Source: a virus. From it: a DNA stretch of 64,000 nt. Made by a program: the position numbers and the translations under genes. Below, one piece after another: positions 6,527-59,258 of the stretch. Each line of letters begins with the position of its first letter. Position 1 is the stretch's first letter. Below the pieces are notes generated by a model. That model made no database searches. It was not told where the DNA came from and saw only the letters and a list, made by a program, of their open reading frames with translations. The stretch spans positions 3,211 to 67,210 of IMG/VR virus record IMGVR_UViG_3300042332_000715; one strand, written 5' to 3'.

Positions 6527-7219
6527 ATGGCTAAGCCCATTATACCGTCTGAATCGTGGATTGCACCTGATTTTTCGCCAGAAACTTTCGGTCGTTTAAC
6601 GACCATTAGTTCTCCTTATAAACCCGAAGGGGCGAAATCGCCCGTACAGGACTTTGTTTGTAGCTGCGGGAATAAGGTGACTAAGCCAGTATCCAGCGTA
6701 AGATCCGGCAACACATCTAGCTGTGGTTGCATTAAAAGGGAGATACTAGAGAAACGAAACTATCGTCACGGAGGTTGTGGTAGCCTAGAACATCAAAATT
6801 ATACGGCTATGCTACAACGCTGCTACTACGAAGCAGGTGAGACGTACAAAAATTACGGAGCACGCGGTATAAAAGTCTGCGACCGGTGGCTTGAGCCAGA
6901 TGGTCGCGGCTTCGCTAATTTCCTCGCTGATATGGGTCCACGACCCGAACTCACATCAACAGTAGAGAGAAAAGATCCAAACAAGGACTACAGCCCAGAT
7001 AACTGCTGCTGGCTTCCCAAGAGATTACAAGGCCGGAATCAAAGGAGAAGCCACATGGTCACTATAGGAGACAGAACGCAATGCGTTGCAGCATGGGCAG
7101 AAGAATACGGCATAAAGGCGTCTACTGTATTCGACAGAATATATTTCGGATGGGAACCAGAAGAAGCTATAACCCTACCTGTAGGAGCTAAGAGGAAAAA
7201 ACCTTTGATCCGAAACTAG
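6527..7219 (+). CDS. free-standing HNH homing endonuclease 1, antisense within a - strand gene run
   Basis: FGRLT, CSCG, SCGC, YGARGIKVCDRW, DMGPRP, Y-x-P-x-NC-x-W motifs. Confidence 0.85.
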   Translation: MAKPIIPSESWIAPDFSPETFGRLTTISSPYKPEGAKSPVQDFVCSCGNKVTKPVSSVRSGNTSSCGCIKREILEKRNYRHGGCGSLEHQNYTAMLQRCYYEAGETYKNYGARGIKVCDRWLEPDGRGFANFLADMGPRPELTSTVERKDPNKDYSPDNCCWLPKRLQGRNQRRSHMVTIGDRTQCVAAWAEEYGIKASTVFDRIYFGWEPEEAITLPVGAKRKKPLIRN

Positions 7220-17210: not shown

Positions 17211-18608
17211 ATGCCGTATCAACCTGCAACAGCCGGAGCCTACAAATTATTCCATCAAGGGACTCTCGCCCTGTCCCGAATGGAAGCAGTAGGCATGCCG
17301 ATTAACCTGCCTAAAATGCAGGCTAATCGAGAGGAAGTCGCACTAAAGATACGTGAAGGCGAAGCTAAGCTGCGCAAACACGAAGTCTATAAGACGCAGC
17401 AGAAGATCTTTGGTAAGGAAACATCTCTCGGTTCCCGAGATCAATTAGCTCATGTGCTGTTCCAGCACATGAAACTAAAGGGTGCGAAACGCACCAAGAA
17501 TGGTAAGTACAAGTTGGACGACGATACTTTACGCTTGCTCGACATGGAGTATTGCGACTCTTTTTTATCACTACAGAAGCTCGTTAAACTTAAAGGGACG
17601 TACCTAGATGCTTTATGCAATCTAGCGGTGGACGGAAGAATACACGGAAGCCTTAACCTACATAAAGTAAAGTCATTCAGAGGATCGGCAGAAGAACCCA
17701 ATCTAAATAATTTACCTAGCAGAAACAAAATTGTCACGGCGTATGTAAAAGGGGCCGTTTGTCCTTCTCCTGGTTATTTGATTGTAGAGTCTGATTACGG
17801 GGCACTTGAAGTTAGAGTCGCTGCGACATACCACAAAGACTCCACAATGTTGTCGTATCTGGAAACAGGGTATGATATGCACAGAGAGATTGCTAAGCAA
17901 TGCTTTCTGTATGACGACGAGTTTATAGAAGCCAATACTTCGCTTGCGAAGGATCTTAGAACAGAAGCTAAGGGAGCAGCTACCTTTGCATTTTGTTATG
18001 GCTCTACGCACCCAGAAGTCGCACAGCGACTATGGAAAATAGCCAACAAGAAAAACATGCTTGCACATTTAGCATCAAAAGGCATTAAACGCCTCGGTAT
18101 GGAATACGATGCTGTAGAAAGTAGGTGGATAATAAATCATGGCCCAGATGCTTTAGTTACCCATATTAAAGCAGTCGAGTACGACTTCTGGAATGTACGA
18201 TTCCCGTTTTATGGTCAATGGAGATTGGATTGGTACAGAGCATACATGCAAAAAGGTTTCTGTATGAACCATACAGGCTTTATGTGGTATGGCGTAGAAC
18301 GTAAGACGTTTATAAATAATTTTCCGATCCAAAGTACGGCTTTTCATATACTATTACAAGCTATCATACTAATACAACAAGAACTTATAAAGAGAAAGAT
18401 GAAGTCTAGGCTGTTCTTAGAGATACACGACTCCATCTTGGCAGAAGTCTACGAGCCTGAACTAGAGGAGTACATAGCATTGACTACAGACATAATGACG
18501 AATAAAATGCGTCAGATGTACGACTGGCTTTGCTTGGATCTGGTCGTGGAGCACGAATACTCACCGCTTTCTTGGGCGGATAAGAAGCCATACGAAGGGA
18601 AATACTAG
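17211..18608 (+). CDS. polA: family A DNA polymerase, polymerase domain only
   Basis: PNLNNLP, DYGALEVR, DMH, AKGAATFAFCYG, NFPIQSTA, EIHDS; no N-terminal exonuclease. Confidence 0.92.
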   Translation: MPYQPATAGAYKLFHQGTLALSRMEAVGMPINLPKMQANREEVALKIREGEAKLRKHEVYKTQQKIFGKETSLGSRDQLAHVLFQHMKLKGAKRTKNGKYKLDDDTLRLLDMEYCDSFLSLQKLVKLKGTYLDALCNLAVDGRIHGSLNLHKVKSFRGSAEEPNLNNLPSRNKIVTAYVKGAVCPSPGYLIVESDYGALEVRVAATYHKDSTMLSYLETGYDMHREIAKQCFLYDDEFIEANTSLAKDLRTEAKGAATFAFCYGSTHPEVAQRLWKIANKKNMLAHLASKGIKRLGMEYDAVESRWIINHGPDALVTHIKAVEYDFWNVRFPFYGQWRLDWYRAYMQKGFCMNHTGFMWYGVERKTFINNFPIQSTAFHILLQAIILIQQELIKRKMKSRLFLEIHDSILAEVYEPELEEYIALTTDIMTNKMRQMYDWLCLDLVVEHEYSPLSWADKKPYEGKY

Positions 18609-27898: not shown

Positions 27899-29119
27899 AT
27901 GTTCACATTCTTTGTCCAGCAAGATAAAAAGCCGTTGGCTTTAGTACCTGACTGCCGCTCCTGCGGACTGGCTCTCAAATGCCAGAACCCAGTTCTAAAA
28001 GCCGTCAAACGACCGTCTAAGACGGTCATCGTCGTAAATGGACCTAACGAAGATCTTCCCGATGGGGTAAAACACCAGAAGCGGCTCGCAGCCGCTTTAG
28101 AGAAGGCTGGGCTGTCGATACACGACTACAGTATCGTACCAGCAATCGCTTGCCCAGGCGATAAGCTGAACCCGAAAGTCCAGTATTGGAAGTATTGCCA
28201 ACCCCTAATGATCCAACAAATCAAGGCTTTAGAGCCTGAAAAGATCATAGTGTACGGCAAGCACGCTATCGCTAGCGTGATCGACTGGCTCTACCGCGAA
28301 CACGCGGAACTGCCAGATCGTTGGATCGGGCGTAAGATTCCCTGCCGGGAACTGAACGCATGGATCTTACCGATAGGGAATAAGGGTATGGTGGTCAATC
28401 CTGCGGTAGCTCAGACTTGGCTCTATCGCTTTATTAGAGAAGCTGATAGTATCCAAGGTCGTCCATATGACCAAGTGCCGGACTACAATAAGACAATCAA
28501 GATCCTACACGACGCTGAAAGCGTCAAACAGGCATTAGGGGCGGCTAGCCGCTCACCGTTGTCTGCGTTTGACTACGAAACGAATTGCCTACGGCCCGAG
28601 AAGCCAAAAGCGAAGATCTTCACAGCTAGCGTAGCTTGGCTCGAAGGAACCGAATCGAAGTGCGTAGCCTTCCCGATGAAAGCGGAGTTCATCCAGTATT
28701 GGATTGAATACTTACTTTCTGATTCGGCGAAAATCGCCGCCAACATGAAGTTCGAGCATCGCTGGTCTAAGAAGCATTTCGGTGTAGACGTGAAACGTCT
28801 TATGTGGGATACGAATCTAGTCGGGCATATGTACGACCCGCAGCCCGGCGTAACTAGCCTGAAATTTCAGGCTTTCCGTGATTTGGGCGTGCCGTTTTAC
28901 GCAGGTGAGGTAGAAAAATACTTCACTACGCAAGACGAAGCGGGCTATAATTCTATTCACTTGGCTAACACGCGGTCGCTGCTGGAATACAACGCGATTG
29001 ACTCATTGGCTGAGCTGGACCTGGGGATCTTGCAAATGTATCAATCCCCGATTGGTAGCGAGTTTTGGAGTTCGGCATTGCCGAACAAACGGTTTTATAC
29101 GAAAGGTATGTGGTTATGA
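27899..29119 (+). CDS. uracil-DNA-glycosylase-like domain fused to a DEDDy 3'-5' exonuclease (detached N-terminal part of the DNA polymerase)
   Basis: CRSCGL..C and ACP..C in the N-terminal half; AFDYET, ANMKFE, WDT, SLK, YNAID in the C-terminal half. Confidence 0.8.
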   Translation: MFTFFVQQDKKPLALVPDCRSCGLALKCQNPVLKAVKRPSKTVIVVNGPNEDLPDGVKHQKRLAAALEKAGLSIHDYSIVPAIACPGDKLNPKVQYWKYCQPLMIQQIKALEPEKIIVYGKHAIASVIDWLYREHAELPDRWIGRKIPCRELNAWILPIGNKGMVVNPAVAQTWLYRFIREADSIQGRPYDQVPDYNKTIKILHDAESVKQALGAASRSPLSAFDYETNCLRPEKPKAKIFTASVAWLEGTESKCVAFPMKAEFIQYWIEYLLSDSAKIAANMKFEHRWSKKHFGVDVKRLMWDTNLVGHMYDPQPGVTSLKFQAFRDLGVPFYAGEVEKYFTTQDEAGYNSIHLANTRSLLEYNAIDSLAELDLGILQMYQSPIGSEFWSSALPNKRFYTKGMWL

Positions 29120-51602: not shown

Positions 51603-51878
51603 TTATGCCCCGTATCGGATTGCTCCGACAAATACTTCATCGTCTTTTTGGTCTAAAACAGACAAGCCCGATACTTGCCTGTTGGAAAAATACTGAAACA
51701 CCGCCATAAGCACTTGAATGAACAATGCGATTAAGGCAGGATCAATAGCTTTGGTTCTGCGATCTTCCTTGACTAGCCGCTCGTATTCGACTCGATTGCC
51801 GCTTGCAGCGGCCCAGTGAGTCCTAGCGACCTGTACTGCAAGTCGCTTGTGTGCCAATGACAGTTTCTTTCTGAACAT
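51603..51878 (-). CDS. membrane-associated hypothetical protein
   Basis: IDPALIALFIQVLMAVF hydrophobic segment. Confidence 0.6.
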   Translation of the reverse strand: MFRKKLSLAHKRLAVQVARTHWAAASGNRVEYERLVKEDRRTKAIDPALIALFIQVLMAVFQYFSNRQVSGLSVLDQKDDEVFVGAIRYGA

Positions 51879-51883
51879 TTCGT

Positions 51884-52114
51884 TTAGCCTTGTACTAGCT
51901 CAAACTTAGGTCGGCCCCAGATTGCAATTAGGTCATCGTCGGATTCGACGATATCACCTGTGAAATAAGCCTTAGATCCGACGCGGTGCTTTCCGCCTAG
52001 AACCTTGAACTTGCGTTTAGTGCTCTTTACTTCGGGAACCGAAGCAGGAGCCTCAACGACAGGAGCCTCAACGACAGGCTCGGTAGATGTAACTTCGTCT
52101 TTGGATTTCGCCAT
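51884..52114 (-). CDS. small virion protein
   Basis: follows the capsid gene; VVEAP repeats. Confidence 0.6.
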   Translation of the reverse strand: MAKSKDEVTSTEPVVEAPVVEAPASVPEVKSTKRKFKVLGGKHRVGSKAYFTGDIVESDDDLIAIWGRPKFELVQG

Positions 52115-52136
52115 GATAGATAATCACCCTTGGTAC

Positions 52137-52178
52137 AAAAATACCGCCCACTCAGGGGTGAAGCTGAATGAGCGGTAT
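52137..52178 (-). terminator. terminator after the major capsid gene
   Basis: ATACCGC / GCGGTAT outer stem followed by TTTTT on the - strand. Confidence 0.7.
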
Positions 52179-52207
52179 GGCGGGACGAGGATTTGAACGA
52201 CTGCTAA

Positions 52208-53320
52208 TTAAGCAGTTGTTGCGTTTCCAGTGAAGTGAACAATACCGCACTTGGAGTTTTGATCCGTTTTCATCAACGGAACCATCATCGCCATGACTCG
52301 GAAGTTAATGGTTTCACCGCCATCGGTTGACCATTGAACTGTTCGAAGATCCATACCCATCAAGACCGAAGCGGTCATTGGGTCGCGTTGAACCATGAGC
52401 AATTGGTTTCCAGTCAAGTAGTCCAATTGTTGGACACTTGCGATGCCTGGAATTCCCAGCAACTTGTTGTAGACGTTAGGTCCAGCATAGTTAGCTGTGT
52501 AATCTTGCATCATGTACTGCATCAACGCTGGGCTATAGAACAGGTTGTAAGGCCCGTACTGATAATCATCGTGAGCTTCCTGAATCATCTTCAGAACGCT
52601 GTTGAACAGCATGCTTGGGGTCCATCCAGCAACCGTTGGGTTGAGGAATGCACCAGTCGTTCGTCCTGGGAAGTTGGTCAAACCATAAAGGCTTTGTCCA
52701 CCGTAGGAGTACGATCCCCAAGTACCGAGAACTAGCTTCTCAGCAGCTTCAGCGACCTTACGTCCGCAGTATTCGAGCATGTGAACAGGAAGTCGCTGTC
52801 CGGTCTTACGAGCGATAGCGATTTCGCGTGCTTCGAGGCTGAATTCCTTGTGGATGATCGGCAATGGAATGCTGACCAAATCAACAACAGTTCGGTCGTT
52901 ACCAGTGTTCGACTTAGGCGACATGCTGATAGTAGCATCGTCGATGTCGCTAACTCGTTCGTACTGATAGATCGAGTGGCTGTAAGCCTCTGGGAAGTTG
53001 ACCGATTGGCCAGCAGCTTGCAGAGCGTTAATCAATTGGAGACGAGGACGCGCGACTTCTACGAGTCGTTGATCCAAGAACTCCCATTCATTCTTGCGGA
53101 GCACGGCTCCGGCGTTGGTTGCCAACTGTGCTTGATACTGACGATTACCGTTATCGTCGTACTTGCCGTTCCATACTGGAACGTAATCGCGTCCGTCGCT
53201 TCCGACGAAAGGTCGGAACGACATATAGTCGCCTGCTTTAAGCAAACGGCTTGCAACGGAGCCAGAAGCGTCGAAGCCTTGCCCGTTGTTTACAATAAAC
53301 TCTGTTTGTACTTCACTCAT
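52208..53320 (-). CDS. major capsid protein (HK97 fold, linocin/encapsulin-like)
   Basis: IPLPIIHKEF, LYGLTNFP, GPYNL; position after protease and decoration genes; terminator downstream. Confidence 0.85.
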   Translation of the reverse strand: MSEVQTEFIVNNGQGFDASGSVASRLLKAGDYMSFRPFVGSDGRDYVPVWNGKYDDNGNRQYQAQLATNAGAVLRKNEWEFLDQRLVEVARPRLQLINALQAAGQSVNFPEAYSHSIYQYERVSDIDDATISMSPKSNTGNDRTVVDLVSIPLPIIHKEFSLEAREIAIARKTGQRLPVHMLEYCGRKVAEAAEKLVLGTWGSYSYGGQSLYGLTNFPGRTTGAFLNPTVAGWTPSMLFNSVLKMIQEAHDDYQYGPYNLFYSPALMQYMMQDYTANYAGPNVYNKLLGIPGIASVQQLDYLTGNQLLMVQRDPMTASVLMGMDLRTVQWSTDGGETINFRVMAMMVPLMKTDQNSKCGIVHFTGNATTA

Positions 53321-53816: not shown

Positions 53817-55169
53817 TTAGCTCTTTGCGAAAGAAGGAGGAGGAAGGGGAACCGATTCGCTGGAAGCGGTGGAACCGCTTGCTTGGTTGCCCACGAAAGC
53901 CTCGCCAGCGTAAACGCCGGAGTTTTGCTTAGGAGCAGGAGCAGCGATAACAGTTGCCAACTTGTTAAGGTGTGCGGTCGAGAAGGAAGCTAGTTCTTCC
54001 TTGGTGAATGAATCCTTGGTGTTCGCCACGATCTTGTCGATCAGAGCTTCTCGCGTCTTGACTGCTAAATCAATCGCGTCGTTGACTTGGTTCTTAACGC
54101 CTTCCGAAGCATGTTCGAGCAATTCGGAAACCGAATTACAAACGATCTTCGCGGGCGATTGAACTGGTGCGGGAGCGGGAGCCGGTGCAAGGGCTTTCTC
54201 GAAAGCCTTGAACTGGTCGTCGCTCATGTTCGTTACGAACTCAGCGTGTTCGCTGCCGAGCTTGTTGATGAGGTCTTTTCGTTCCATGTTCTCTTGTTTT
54301 TGGTTTTGGACTGAGTAAGTAACTTTGCGAGTTACAGGTGTCGCATTACCTATTAGTTTAACTAATCCAGATTCTATTGCATAATTTTGGCGAAAATAGG
54401 AAGATTCCCCTTGACTGGACTTTTCGAACACGACATATTTGTCATATACGGCTACGATGTAGGCGTAAATATTCGGGCCTTCAGCCGTCATTACTTCATG
54501 CTCTGCATATACAGCCTGCCTTACCTGATCTACAATTTCGGTGAGGTTCTTAGCATTACCTACCAGCTCCGGTAGCTGTTCAGGTCTAGAAGGCTTCTCA
54601 GCCTTATTGACGAGAAGCCCCGCACCATCTTTAAGTGAGCAGGCACCTTCCCCTGATAGGATGATTGCCAAGTGGTCAGGACGATAGTTCGTCGCCTTTG
54701 CGACGTATTCGTTGTTAGCAAACGTACCTTGTAAGGGCTGTGCATCGATATACAATCCTGTAGATACTTCGAGCTTCTCGCCTGCGTGTAACGCAGCTTG
54801 AACAATCTCGGCTCCTGGTACTTTGCCTAAGCGGTCGATCTCGAACCACGCTTCAGCGACTAGTCGCTTTTTGCGTTTATCGTACTTGGTGTTGAGGACC
54901 ATCCCTACAGCGTGCTTCTCTAGGGATTCGGGCGAAGCCCCCGACACCTTAGTACCATCGGACGTTTCAGGGTGGTTAATGGTGATTGGCTTGGCATTCC
55001 AAGCAGGCACCGACATAGCAATGTCATTGCCCTCGTAATACACTGGACCCGCAGAACCTTTCCAGACGCCTTCGACGATCATGGAAACAGGAGCTACTAG
55101 GTAGTTTCGGCCTTGTAAAGTCTTTTGGGATACCTTAGCCGACGCTAGGTTCGCTATCAGTTTTTCCAT
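53817..55169 (-). CDS. prohead protease / scaffold (DUF2213-like)
   Basis: KPITINHP, LEVSTG, PDHLAI, GACS..DGAG; helical C-terminal scaffold region. Confidence 0.85.
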   Translation of the reverse strand: MEKLIANLASAKVSQKTLQGRNYLVAPVSMIVEGVWKGSAGPVYYEGNDIAMSVPAWNAKPITINHPETSDGTKVSGASPESLEKHAVGMVLNTKYDKRKKRLVAEAWFEIDRLGKVPGAEIVQAALHAGEKLEVSTGLYIDAQPLQGTFANNEYVAKATNYRPDHLAIILSGEGACSLKDGAGLLVNKAEKPSRPEQLPELVGNAKNLTEIVDQVRQAVYAEHEVMTAEGPNIYAYIVAVYDKYVVFEKSSQGESSYFRQNYAIESGLVKLIGNATPVTRKVTYSVQNQKQENMERKDLINKLGSEHAEFVTNMSDDQFKAFEKALAPAPAPAPVQSPAKIVCNSVSELLEHASEGVKNQVNDAIDLAVKTREALIDKIVANTKDSFTKEELASFSTAHLNKLATVIAAPAPKQNSGVYAGEAFVGNQASGSTASSESVPLPPPSFAKS

Positions 55170-55455
55170 CTTCGGAATACTCCAATACGTTCTTTTCGTT
55201 CCAGTAAGCTACAATTCCCACGAAAGCAGGAATGTGGATGTTCCATACAAAGTTGACGATACCTTTATCGATCTCACGGAGATGATATTCGCATTGCTCG
55301 ACGATTTCATCGTCACTCAATTCGCCTTCAACTTCGACCATGCTGTTGACGAGATAGAGGTCTGCAACATCCATAGCGAATAGTGCCGCAGACTCTACGT
55401 CTTTTTGTTTCATAGCTGCTACAAAAAGTTGAGCAGCAAGTGGGTTAAAGTGCAT
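55135..55455 (-). CDS. hypothetical protein
   Basis: TAATG coupling to the portal gene. Confidence 0.5.
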   Translation of the reverse strand: MHFNPLAAQLFVAAMKQKDVESAALFAMDVADLYLVNSMVEVEGELSDDEIVEQCEYHLREIDKGIVNFVWNIHIPAFVGIVAYWNEKNVLEYSEDGKTDSEPSVG

Positions 55456-56972
55456 TATCGTTTGGGCCTTTGTTGGGTATTAGTTGGGGTCTTGTTAGGG
55501 TCTTTCGATTGTCCTGGCTTCGGCATTTTGGGGATCGAGCTTGGGATATTGCCATTCGCCGAGCCTGATAGAACTGATTTCAGTTCAGCCAGGACTGGCG
55601 AGAATTCAGTCTTATCTGCGGCCATGATTGCTTGTACCATTTGGGCCGAGAAGCCCATGACCTTGCCAAGATATTCAGGCAATGGAATCAAGGCTTCGGC
55701 ACCCGAAGTCGCGTATCTTGCTAAGCCTTCGGACATCTTGGCAGCTACTTCGGCTTGCTCAATGATTGAGAGCGGAGCCATAGGCTCCCATCTCACCATA
55801 TAAGGTAATGGCTGATCTTGCTGCGGCTTTGGTTCTGGGAGAACCCCTGCCTGGATAAGACGATCAAGCGTTGGCCTAATGATGTATGGCGTTACGTGAC
55901 GCTCTTTTCTAAGAGCAATACGTTCTCGCCAAAGAATGGTGTCCTGCGGGCTGTCTAGCTGGCCTTGCTGCGATCCTATGAATGTCTGCATTGGGATGCC
56001 TTTATTCATGGCAATCAGCATCAATAGGTTCTTAGTGTGATTGGTAGGGTCGGCTACCTGTGGCAATAGCGATTTAACGCTTACGCCGACCATAGTGATG
56101 TACCGCTGCAATCCTTCGGCATACAGCTTTACGTCCTCACGTAACGCTTCGCGTTCTTCTGCGGAGAAATCGCCGTGTTTGGGATCAACTTCGAAGCTAA
56201 GCCCTGGGAAGGCACCCTTCCAGAACATCTCACCAGAGCCTCCTACGACCTTGCGTAGATCGAGGAGACGGTTGTACACGGATTCCATCCGTGGGGCACC
56301 GAAGATCTCGGATTCAATGCGATTGTCCGCTATGTGGACGACCCGCGACCAGTGGACTCGATGATTCTGAGCAGTTGTTTCGGTAGAGCTAGGATGCTCT
56401 TGGAACGTCAATGTGTAGTATCGTGGCTGTCCGTAACGCGGATTCGTCCGGTCGTCCTCAAATTCCATGATGGAAACAGAGCCTTCACCAAATACCCTGT
56501 AGTAGAGTATTTGTGCATCGCCACGCGATTCCAATGGTCCGGTTTCATCGAAGCCCGGTGCGGGCGTTTCAAACTCTCCGCCATCGTCGAAGCCGAGAAA
56601 TAGAATACCGAATCGTCCGATACCGCTTACGCGGTCAGCACGATGGAGGTAAGAATACAGATTGGTCTTGGCGTTTAGGCGGTCAACCGCCTTTTCGAAG
56701 TCGGTTTCGCGTTCTTCCTCGGTTTCATAGACGCTTGGATAGTCTTTCCAGCATTCGTCCGGCTGAATATCCACGACCCGATTGGCAATTTCATGGCGAC
56801 GATACATCGTCACGTAATCAGCAGGTGTGATAGTTTGGGGATAACCGCACATCTGATCGAGATTTCGATCTAGATTTTCGCCGTCCATAATAGGCACACC
56901 GGCTAACGCTCGGTCAAATAAGTTTGTGACCAGTTCTAGACTGCGAATGTGCTGAGTTGGATCGGGTTTCAC
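55455..56972 (-). CDS. portal protein (DUF1073-like)
   Basis: MYRR..IA.RVVD...ECW, PRYGQP, VHWSRVVHIA, GIP....G; position. Confidence 0.88.
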   Translation of the reverse strand: MKPDPTQHIRSLELVTNLFDRALAGVPIMDGENLDRNLDQMCGYPQTITPADYVTMYRRHEIANRVVDIQPDECWKDYPSVYETEEERETDFEKAVDRLNAKTNLYSYLHRADRVSGIGRFGILFLGFDDGGEFETPAPGFDETGPLESRGDAQILYYRVFGEGSVSIMEFEDDRTNPRYGQPRYYTLTFQEHPSSTETTAQNHRVHWSRVVHIADNRIESEIFGAPRMESVYNRLLDLRKVVGGSGEMFWKGAFPGLSFEVDPKHGDFSAEEREALREDVKLYAEGLQRYITMVGVSVKSLLPQVADPTNHTKNLLMLIAMNKGIPMQTFIGSQQGQLDSPQDTILWRERIALRKERHVTPYIIRPTLDRLIQAGVLPEPKPQQDQPLPYMVRWEPMAPLSIIEQAEVAAKMSEGLARYATSGAEALIPLPEYLGKVMGFSAQMVQAIMAADKTEFSPVLAELKSVLSGSANGNIPSSIPKMPKPGQSKDPNKTPTNTQQRPKR

Positions 56973-57056
56973 GGTACTTACCTGAGAAAGAATTAGAGAC
57001 GCTAATTCTGTATTGTACCATGATTGAAGATATTACCTCGATTTTCGAGGCTAAAC

Positions 57057-57240
57057 GAAAAACCCCGTCTAGGACGTAACTTATTTCCTAGACGGGGTAA
57101 TGCTGAAGCCGCGAAGCGACTTCGTTACAGATCCCACACATGGTAGGATTATACGAAAAACCCCCTCGGACGAAAGGATTAAAACTTCCGAGGGGGTCTA
57201 TGTAGCTTGCCGGTAAAGGAGGAGAGCAAACCCGGCAAGC
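57057..57240 (-). other. three consecutive long hairpins, two with U-tails on the - strand
   Basis: stems 57062-57074/57086-57098, 57160-57170/57187-57197 and 57205-57213/57232-57240. Confidence 0.7.
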
Positions 57241-57272
57241 AAGGAGGGGTTCAACCTGACAGTTGTACTTCC

Positions 57273-57301
57273 ATTGTACCCCGCTAGCGGGGCGGTGTCA
57301 A
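57273..57301 (-). promoter_or_regulatory. near-consensus promoter TTGACA-N17-TACAAT with CCCCGCTAGCGGGG in the spacer
   Basis: -35 at 57301-57296, -10 at 57278-57273. Confidence 0.8.
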
Positions 57302-57318
57302 GAGATGTAATAAAATTC

Positions 57319-57346
57319 TTGCCAAAGTCAAATCATTTGGTAGAAT
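57319..57346 (+). promoter_or_regulatory. promoter TTGCCA-N16-TAGAAT with extended -10 TG, driving the candidate ncRNA
   Basis: read directly; back-to-back with the - strand promoter. Confidence 0.7.
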
Positions 57347-57352
57347 GGTACG

Positions 57353-57830
57353 ATCCACGGCCTAGCCGTGGCGGGTGGACTCGGGGCTGGACGCTCCCCA
57401 TCCGGGCGCGTGTTAGCGTGAAAGCCAAGCCTACTAGGTGGCAGATCGGGTAGTCAAGCATTACGACTTGGGAAGCTGAAAGCTTCGGGGAATGACGTGA
57501 GATACGGCATCTTCCTACAGCGTGGTACTAGGAAGCGACAGGATTACGCTAACACATAGCCCGCATCTATATGCGGGTTGGGGAGTGTAGTAGGGGCACC
57601 TACTACGACGGGCAAAGAGAACTGAAGATCCTCTGTACATTACCTAGCGAAAAACTAAACCCAAGCTCTGTGTACCCTCACAACTTGGTCCCGTGGCATT
57701 CACCTATAAGGTGTAACTAGCTAGAGTAAGAACCCCTGGATAGGTAACACATCCATAGCCAAACAAGCCGTTACACGGCTAAAACAAACACCGCAAGGCA
57801 TAATGCCGGGCATAGAGGGTTCCCACGCAC
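57353..57830 (+). ncRNA. candidate large structured non-coding RNA (about 480 nt)
   Basis: no ORF of 60 aa or more; nested long-range helices and many hairpins; own promoter. Confidence 0.65.
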
Positions 57831-59258
57831 TTACTTCAAAACGCCTAATTTAACCGTTTGCTTGGTCAAAACATTGAATGCTAGCGAAGTGGCATCCACT
57901 TGGTCGTCATGCGACCCATCTGGGAAATACATGAATTCAGACTCGTAATCGTCCCAAACTTCACCGCCAATGGCGGTGTGGATGTTTCCCATGTTGATCT
58001 GAGTCGAGAGCGAATCCGCTCTAACTAGCTTACTGCCGCTGGAAGCGGCCTTTTCGACGTGGACGACGAAGCCATTTAGCCGCTTCACGGCTGCTTTGGC
58101 AGCGTCGATACCTGCGGAGCCTAGTTCTTGCTCTAGAGCGATCTTAACGTGCCTGCCATCGGCGTGAGCCGTTGCTACGATGATCTTCTCGCGTTCGTCC
58201 GTGTCCCACTGACCTCTGCGAATGTCGAGAATCCAGATCGTCCCATCGTCCATCATTCCCAGCTTGGCGCCGACCGTAAAGTCGCCGCTAGCCGCGAGAG
58301 CGGCTTTATCCCAAGCACGCACGATCTTTTTGAACGCTCGATCCGCTGGCGGAGCCAAGTGCTTAACGACTCTATCTATCTTGATAGCACCACCACCGGG
58401 CGGAATGGGCTGTTGCAGGATTTGTCCTGCGTAGCCCCAATCACCTAACTGGACCCGCAAATCGGCAAGAGCCTTCCGGCTCAATCGATCAGGGTCGAAC
58501 AAACCATCGACGTAGTGTTGACGTAGTTCAGGTGGATTGATAAAGTCGGATTCGACCCCCGGCAAGCAGATCAGCTTGACATTTGGATATTCTTTCAGCA
58601 TGACTGCCGTAGGGTCGCCAACGGAGATCCGTTGCATGACAAGGTAGGTGAAGGACACGTCCTTGTCCACTTTCCGGCTCGGCAGCGTTTCTTTCATAAA
58701 CCTAGCCGCCTCTAGCTGCGCTGCTGCCGATCTACCGCCCTGCGGGTCCAGAGGATCGTCGATGCCCAGAACGTGGGCGTGACGCCCCATGATACCGCCT
58801 TTGATGCCGTAGGCGTATCTATCGCCTCCGAGCGTATTACTCCAAAGGCTCATCTTGTTTAAGTCGCCGCGTAGCTCGATTTCGGGGAATAGCTTCTGGT
58901 AGAGCGGAGATTGAACCACACGTCTGCTCTTGACGGTGAGTTCGAATGCTAGATCTTCCGTAAAGCTGGCACCGAGGAACCGCAGCCCTGGAAACCTAGT
59001 CCACGCCCAAGGCGTGTAAAGGACCGTGAAGATCGATGACTTCGACGTACCGGGACTGATGTTGCAGATTAGATCGTATTCCTTCGGTTCGCCGCGAAAG
59101 ACCCTTTCGGATGCGACCTGAAGTTCGTTGCACAGGTACGGGATGTGCCAATTTACCTTTAGTTTCTGGTCGGAGATCACAGGCCAGAAGGTTTTGACGA
59201 AGTGGAAGTAGCTCTCTCTACAAAGGCGGCTTAGCTCGCCGTAGTAGTCAATTTGCAT
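57831..59258 (-). CDS. terL: terminase large subunit
   Basis: NISPGTSKS, GIDDP, VMQR, YAGQILQQP, WDKA, DFTVG, HDDQVDA. Confidence 0.95.
   Translation of the reverse strand: MQIDYYGELSRLCRESYFHFVKTFWPVISDQKLKVNWHIPYLCNELQVASERVFRGEPKEYDLICNISPGTSKSSIFTVLYTPWAWTRFPGLRFLGASFTEDLAFELTVKSRRVVQSPLYQKLFPEIELRGDLNKMSLWSNTLGGDRYAYGIKGGIMGRHAHVLGIDDPLDPQGGRSAAAQLEAARFMKETLPSRKVDKDVSFTYLVMQRISVGDPTAVMLKEYPNVKLICLPGVESDFINPPELRQHYVDGLFDPDRLSRKALADLRVQLGDWGYAGQILQQPIPPGGGAIKIDRVVKHLAPPADRAFKKIVRAWDKAALAASGDFTVGAKLGMMDDGTIWILDIRRGQWDTDEREKIIVATAHADGRHVKIALEQELGSAGIDAAKAAVKRLNGFVVHVEKAASSGSKLVRADSLSTQINMGNIHTAIGGEVWDDYESEFMYFPDGSHDDQVDATSLAFNVLTKQTVKLGVLK

Follow-up and report, generated by a model that had tools for sequence, protein, structure and literature searches.

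A candidate structured RNA cassette among the alternative cargoes of the slot between the terminase and portal genes of a phage

The genes for the large terminase (terL) and the portal protein are separated, in the genome of the uncultured lake phage considered here, by 858 bp in which the longest start-to-stop open reading frame (ORF) amounts to 59 amino acids. The gap lies in a window of 64,000 nucleotides (the whole stretch of DNA that was analysed), taken from an IMG/VR virus record of 67 kb with an estimated completeness of 86%. The original prediction, made from the letters of the window, had described about 860 bp lacking any ORF of 60 amino acids or more in an otherwise gap-free genome, and had placed there a highly structured non-coding RNA of about 480 nucleotides, antisense to the virion operon and possibly linked to packaging. 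The measurements agree with the first part of this description: no other part of the window runs as far free of ORFs of at least 80 amino acids, and the next internal stretch of this kind spans 498 bp. This runner-up (51710-52207) adjoins an ORF of 370 amino acids at 52208-53320.

The phage is equipped with helicases, a primase, a DNA polymerase in two pieces, a clamp loader, a UvsX-like recombinase and PhoH, and no integrase was found among the ORFs scanned, which were a subset of those in the window; with replication genes of its own and no integrase in that subset, it looks virulent. The phrog_17 'DNA polymerase' is split over two + strand ORFs about 9 kb apart, of which 27899-29119 corresponds to profile positions 549-820 and 17211-18608 to positions 835-1237. 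The nearest named phages share at most 35% identity in terL, and the two genome matches obtained are distant MAGs.

When the gap is read in the direction of the virion genes, the structured stretch (57830 to 57353) comes first, followed by two back-to-back promoters and then by a leader on the - strand before the portal gene (Table 1). Two relatives are of particular use in the comparisons below, namely L003, an IMG/VR contig also recovered as L006 and L087, whose genome is 93% identical to the window overall (100-nt windows have a median identity of 96%), and L007, whose terL and portal are 97% and 88% identical, respectively. The spacer of the portal-facing promoter is filled by a 14-nt perfect palindrome, CCCCGCTAGCGGGG (57279-57292), which may be operator-like. 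The corresponding promoter reads TTGACA-17-TATGAT in L003; that of L007 differs (TTGCAA-17-TATGAT) and has its own palindrome in the spacer. The leader and its terminator, the latter formed by arms 57160-57170/57187-57197 and a T-run (inverted repeat I3), are conserved in all three sequences, the equivalent promoter-leader regions being 57153-57301 on the - strand of the window, 2462-2608 in L003 and 4929-5130 in L007. In appearance, promoter and leader suggest a late promoter under repressor control that works with antitermination or attenuation, or else a small RNA of about 100 nucleotides. The second terminator copy is absent from L003 and from a contig of run X13 (joint 57055->57153).

Table 1. 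Coordinates of the features at the terL-portal locus, as positions of the window
Feature	Position	Strand	Remarks
Portal gene	55455..56972	-	PF06381, E 2e-26; also phrog_146
Second terminator copy	57055..57152	-	Arms 57062-57079/57081-57098; 98-nt-spaced duplication
Leader	57153..57253	-	Hairpin 57206-57239 with two CCUCC motifs, then intrinsic terminator
Divergent promoter facing portal	57273..57301	-	TTGACA-17-TACAAT, 11/12 consensus positions
Cassette promoter	57303..57352	+	-35 TTGCCA 57319-57324, 16-nt spacer, TG-extended -10 TAGAAT 57341-57346
5' domain	57353..57583	+	Nearly invariant between alleles; from 100-nt window identities and consensus fold
P1 hairpin	57355-57371	+	5' domain
12-bp helix	57410-57421/57544-57555	+	Encloses multi-hairpin junction
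Hairpin	57559-57578	+	5' domain
3' domain	57584..57760	+	Conserved skeleton, swappable peripheral hairpins
Hairpin	57587-57606	+	GGCA loop kept in L003
Hairpin	57661-57688	+	Invariant
Hairpin	57701-57713	+	3' domain
Hairpin	57737-57755	+	Loop AGGUAACAC kept in L003
Proposed long-range pairs	GGGG 57580-83/CCCC 57733-36; ACCUAG 57642-47/CUAGAGU 57721-27	+	
3' tail	57761..57830	.	Small hairpins 57766-57780 and 57797-57807, swapped or kept in L003
terL (large terminase)	57831..59258	-	phrog_38, E 2e-65; stop codon abuts cassette

The + strand promoter that had been proposed at 57319-57346 is present as TTGCCA-16-TG-TAGAAT, a sigma-70-type promoter with an extended -10 that agrees with the consensus at 10 of 12 positions. 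It is found in L003 as well, where the alignment shows one upstream change and one at 57353. An A/T-rich stretch (57307-57318) precedes the -35 and may serve as an UP element, and transcription should begin near 57350-57353. No intrinsic terminator that would mark the 3' end of the RNA was detected on the + strand between 57353 and 59134 by a terminator scan. In the metatranscriptome library X19, one contig of 259 nt spans 57399-57583 and extends from there into a 3' half of the L003 type; as it is unstranded, has a depth of 2.5 and could stem from DNA carried over into the library, it gives only a hint at expression. The RNA-library runs X19 and X20 yielded no cover of the terL and portal sequence on either side, which has no bearing on expression. 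Part or all of the cassette occurs in 20 of the 22 runs listed, drawn from 16 lake or fresh-water studies.

Searches for relatives of the element gave a narrow distribution. The gap matched nothing in a blastn search of 50,697 phage records, and in the 116 locus entries of relatives collected by terL-based, protein-guided scans, blastn and nhmmer found the element in the window and the L003 contig only. Scans of IMG/VR for exact patterns (conserved pieces of 17-23 bases) returned the L003 contig and L124, which is of the L003 type and is cut after the first 138 nucleotides of the element (the equivalent of 57490), so that three IMG/VR contigs carry it in all. A further candidate, L123, was rejected, as its match was a chance 17-mer with no other similarity.

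The slot itself is more widely shared than the element. A terL-portal gap of 282-1341 bp is present in all 20 entries whose portal is at least 64% identical, several of these 20 being the same contig from two collections, and at portal identities of 55% or less terL and portal abut in most entries, with a few unrelated large gaps. The gap of L007 measures 290 bp and bears no trace of the element or of the cassette promoter. One DNA contig joins 57302 directly to 57831, so that promoter and RNA are absent together; 57303-57830 thus behaves as a unit with sharp boundaries, and near-identical phages dispense with it. Other relatives have filled the slot differently. HNH endonuclease genes of phrog_374 (E about 1e-62), antisense to the virion genes and 43% identical to each other, occupy it in L010 (4905-5618, - strand) and L092 (2085-2771, - strand), an unrelated antisense ORF of 223 amino acids with no family assigned in L008 (5032-5703, - strand), and short antisense ORFs, likewise with no family assigned, in L011 (2647-2928, - strand) and L095 (2092-2304, - strand). 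The products of the last two look, by eye, like small hydrophobic or membrane proteins. The L095 ORF is preceded by a TATAAT promoter with a TG extension and by AAGGAG as its ribosome-binding site, and a gene of the phrog_374 family is also found elsewhere in the window (6527-7219, + strand). The gaps of other relatives hold inserts that bear no relation to the element; a tblastn comparison of the cargo proteins of relatives with the element yielded a single match of 10 residues (E 7.0), and no coding frame is conserved with them. The terL-portal slot is a recombination and homing hot spot with alternative cargoes.

The two halves of the element differ in their conservation. The 5' domain shows 3 differing positions between the window and L003 (about 99% identity), and the 100-nt windows starting at 57320-57470 are 98-100% identical, compared with the genome-wide median of 96% and with 22-88% for the neighbouring non-coding sequence. 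A third allele, carried by a 187-nt contig of run X20, has six changes, among which C57561T and G57576A together convert a C-G pair into U-A in the hairpin at 57559-57578. At 57552 all the five other alleles seen (L003, X19, X20, X8 and X13) carry G in place of the A of the window. The hexamer UAACAC occurs twice, at 57550-57555, where it belongs to the 3' side of the 12-bp helix, and at 57751-57756, within the conserved 9-nt loop; either copy could pair with GUGUUA (57410-57415), which would permit an alternative pairing or a pseudoknot.

From 57584 to 57830 the identity to L003 falls to just 55-78%. Certain anchors are conserved throughout this part (ACCUAG, the hairpin at 57661-57688 with the following GGUCCCGUGGCAU, CUAGAGU, CCCC, the loop AGGUAACAC and UAGCCAA), and they alternate with replaced segments, each of which folds, in either allele, into a hairpin of comparable size and position. 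Five hairpins are matched by position, four with stems of 10 and 9 bp (sharing the GGCA loop), 4 and 6 bp, 5 and 6 bp, and 6 and 5 bp, and the remaining one identical in architecture, with its 9-nt loop unchanged and two pairs altered in a compensatory way. The RNAalifold consensus of the window and L003 contains 126 pairs, 10 of them changed on both sides, and when the window is folded by itself 7 double-sided changes are counted, versus 0-4 in six slid controls. In that window-only fold, 26 of the 37 varying pairs are broken in L003 as aligned, and the independent minimum-energy folds of the two alleles have just 14 column pairs in common in the 3' half. As the collections searched hold only two full-length alleles, the window and L003, the covariation is anecdotal and its counts are no more than suggestive. 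The local structure appears to be under selection, on good evidence from a small sample, and the global fold is uncertain. The 3' tail may be a part of the RNA or a terminator region of terL acting on the - strand; the motif GUGCG follows the terL stop on that strand in the window and not in L003. Some population variants have the stretch 57700-57832 missing or replaced, with a joint 57699->57833 in X8 and X13. Outside the element the only patch as divergent from L003, save a 97-nt indel around 57025-57174, is 54425-54574 (53-55% identity), within an ORF of 450 amino acids at 53817-55169.

All nine helices of the original prediction are complementary, with the CTTGG arm ending at 57688 and not at 57687, and two of them fare less well in the comparison. 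The long-range helix 57391-57400/57579-57588 keeps 8 of its 10 pairs in L003 and is rivalled by local pairings in the two-sequence consensus; the helix 57730-57735/57817-57822, which was to close the 3' domain, is complementary in the window and keeps just 3 of 6 pairs in L003. The folding energy does surpass that of dinucleotide shuffles, at -170.4 kcal/mol and z -2.47 on the + strand (4 of 100 shuffles were equally good) and -167.5 kcal/mol and z -1.61 on the - strand, and yet it is no better than the background of the genome. The 240-nt windows of the first 16.5 kb have a mean z of -1.98 (138 window-strands), and 40 random windows per strand from 17-56 kb have means of -1.47 (+) and -1.57 (-), with 23-28% of the 40 at or below -2.3. 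On the + strand the halves of the element score -2.29 (5') and -0.96 (3'), and the 3' domain alone about -0.8 to -1.0. Since coding windows of the same genome average z -1.5 to -2.0, folding energy carries little weight here. That coding windows throughout this genome fold, on both strands, far better than their dinucleotide shuffles (240-nt mean z -1.5 to -2.0) is in itself unusual.

The comparison with known RNA families bears out the absence of RNase P, tmRNA or intron signatures that had been noted at the outset, as none was found with Rfam and ARAGORN reported no tmRNA. No Rfam family was matched at the gathering score by the window or by the loci of ten relatives, and with E values up to 10 the regions 56950-57900 of the window and 1900-2450 of L003 gave two chance-level matches only, both outside the element. 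The Rfam models of RNase P RNA, group I and II introns, HEARO and the self-cleaving ribozymes were among those that gave no match, and even at E up to 10 the element matches neither the GOLLD model (RF01998) nor that of ROOL (RF03087). ARAGORN found no tRNA or tmRNA gene in the 64-kb window, and neither a tRNA-like domain nor a tag frame is seen; a repeat scan found no iterons or tandem repeats. A retron was considered and rejected, as PF00078 was not found at E up to 0.1 in the 67-kb record, which is about 86% complete. No published description of the element was found in the literature searched. One collection of candidate structured RNAs drawn from IMG/VR (PMC10690425), for which at least three regions there were required, could list it.

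The choice of the functional strand has to be made on other grounds than G-U pairs, which had been said to favour the + strand. Each consensus has wobbles of its own, 14 on the + strand versus 21 on the - strand, and because they occur in the folds of both strands, counting them fails as a test. The - strand deserves attention as the source of the functional molecule, since the stretch could act there as a structured 3' untranslated region or terminator cluster of terL that insulates the portal promoter, the + strand promoter being incidental. All the hairpins form on the - strand too, the consensus energy is -126.5 kcal/mol there (-135.9 on the + strand), its consensus has 11 double-sided changes, as many as that of the + strand, and the 5' domain even folds better (z -3.30 versus -2.29). 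T-rich runs follow both hairpins of the 3' tail, beside the terL stop, on that strand, and they count against the + strand together with its lack of a terminator. However, the terminator scan called neither of the two, its sole - strand call inside the element (hairpin 57577-57560) lying well within the 5' domain, and the terL of L007 ends without the element. In the 12-bp helix, which is the longest, the majority allele G57552 leaves a U-G pair on the + strand and produces a C-A mismatch on the - strand. The + strand is further favoured because the extended -10 promoter stands at its exact 5' edge, is conserved in the window and L003, and is lost together with the structured stretch in one DNA contig, and because the slot-filling ORFs of relatives run antisense to terL. 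The + strand is thus likely to be the functional one, though far from certainly so, and a 3' untranslated region of terL is regarded as an unlikely account.

An equally unlikely account dispenses with a functional RNA and takes the stretch for filler, a decayed cargo gene or a recombination scar at a homing-endonuclease hot spot, with incidental hairpins. It would explain folding scores no better than the coding background, the many predicted pairs lost in L003 and the existence of only two full alleles in a mosaic slot where relatives carry HNH endonuclease genes. Against it stand the five position-matched hairpins with unrelated stems between conserved anchors and loops (GGCA and AGGUAACAC), the compensatory change of X20, a 5' domain far better conserved than the non-coding sequence around it, and the failure of the cargo proteins of relatives to match anything beyond 10 residues. 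A regulator acting in cis, for which pairing or collision with the terL message and not the fold would matter, is suggested by the convergent arrangement and the want of a + strand terminator before terL. It leaves the conserved junctions and structure-preserving stem swaps unexplained, and the convergent layout is shared by the protein cargo of relatives and is therefore a property of the slot; the probability given to it is low. Translation of a small protein from the + strand frame 57571-57720 (49 codons; 55 in L003) is very improbable. The frame is the sole one open in both alleles, with net indels that sum to 6 nucleotides, but it has no Shine-Dalgarno sequence, its ATG is inside a hairpin stem, its divergent part changes by stem swaps, and 5.8 billion predicted proteins, among which the peptide itself is not recorded, contain no relative of it. 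The suggested link to packaging is not supported by the comparison with relatives. The position between terL and portal is all that speaks for an RNA forming a structural part of the DNA-packaging motor in the manner of the phi29 pRNA; L007 and the contig joining 57302 to 57831 lack the element, relatives have unrelated antisense genes in its place or nothing, and no Rfam pRNA match was obtained at E up to 10. With several alternative cargoes in the slot, of which 57303-57830 is one, neither a cis site (pac or ori) nor a packaging RNA can be essential here, and a packaging RNA of any kind is accorded hardly any probability at all.

A new structured RNA is the best reading of the element because it is non-coding, has a conserved promoter, preserves its hairpins through segment swaps and compensatory changes, and matches no Rfam family. 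To this extent the proposal of a new or divergent large RNA stands, the arguments from energy and G-U pairs not being decisive, and we consider the chances somewhat better than even that the element is a promoter-driven accessory RNA gene on the + strand that represents a new family. On that reading 57303-57830 would be a self-contained cargo cassette, consisting of a strong sigma-70-type promoter and a non-coding, multi-hairpin RNA gene of about 410-480 nucleotides, lodged between the stop codon of terL and the portal promoter and oriented opposite to the virion genes. Transcribed from the host-type promoter during infection, a stable, folded RNA would have its functional core in the invariant 5' domain, and the 3' domain would be a scaffold whose junctions and some loops are fixed, with peripheral stems that tolerate replacement or are selected for it. 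Such an RNA would most likely act in trans by binding or sequestering a host or phage factor and, by analogy with the other cargoes of such slots, would be of use in competing with the host or other phages and not in virion assembly. A bolder version, which we put forward tentatively and consider possible but distinctly less than probable, takes it for the founding member of a new class of large ornate phage RNAs, of a kind with GOLLD and ROOL, that is carried as RNA-only cargo at a hot spot of homing endonucleases in freshwater phages. The 5' domain would then be the working core, and the peripheral stems of the 3' domain, which differ from allele to allele in the population, would be under diversifying pressure, such as an arms race would exert on an RNA that inhibits a host defence or host factor or serves as its decoy.

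To our knowledge, very few large structured RNAs of phages have been described and none has an assigned function, so that a new one, if confirmed, would enlarge a small set. The variants with and without the element in near-identical phages, together with the promoter and the modular architecture, offer a genetic contrast between RNA-plus and RNA-minus phages. The accessory slots of virulent phages would then be able to hold RNA-only cargo, which gene-centred annotation overlooks. If the element should prove incidental, the locus would remain a clear hot spot for homing endonucleases and other cargo beside a regulated late promoter.

Several known systems resemble the element in part. The phi29 pRNA, with a length of roughly 174 nucleotides, is likewise a structured RNA encoded by a phage, but the present element is dispensable in near-identical phages, about three times longer and without a match to the pRNA model of Rfam. 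Morons, known from the lambdoid-phage literature, are independent cassettes of promoter and gene between conserved genes; like them, the element has its own promoter, lies between two conserved genes, is present or absent among close relatives and occupies a slot that is reused by unrelated cargo in others, and it differs from them in carrying an RNA without an ORF, in showing no terminator of its own in the scan and in residing in a phage that appears virulent. With free-standing homing endonuclease genes it has in common the slot and orientation of those in L010 and L092 and the mosaic flanks, whereas the cassette neither encodes an endonuclease nor resembles those genes. In kind, GOLLD and ROOL come closest to the element. 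They are described as large ornate RNAs of phages and prophages, often near tRNA islands, and GOLLD as having one conserved and one less conserved half (bioRxiv 10.1101/2024.12.08.627333). Unlike these, the element has no tRNA gene anywhere in its 64-kb window, its conserved half is the 5' one, and it is known from the sequence of two full alleles only. The element is like GOLLD and ROOL in measuring several hundred nucleotides with many helices, in being borne by a phage, and in having neither an adjacent partner protein nor an assigned function. The element is probably a new RNA family within a known kind.
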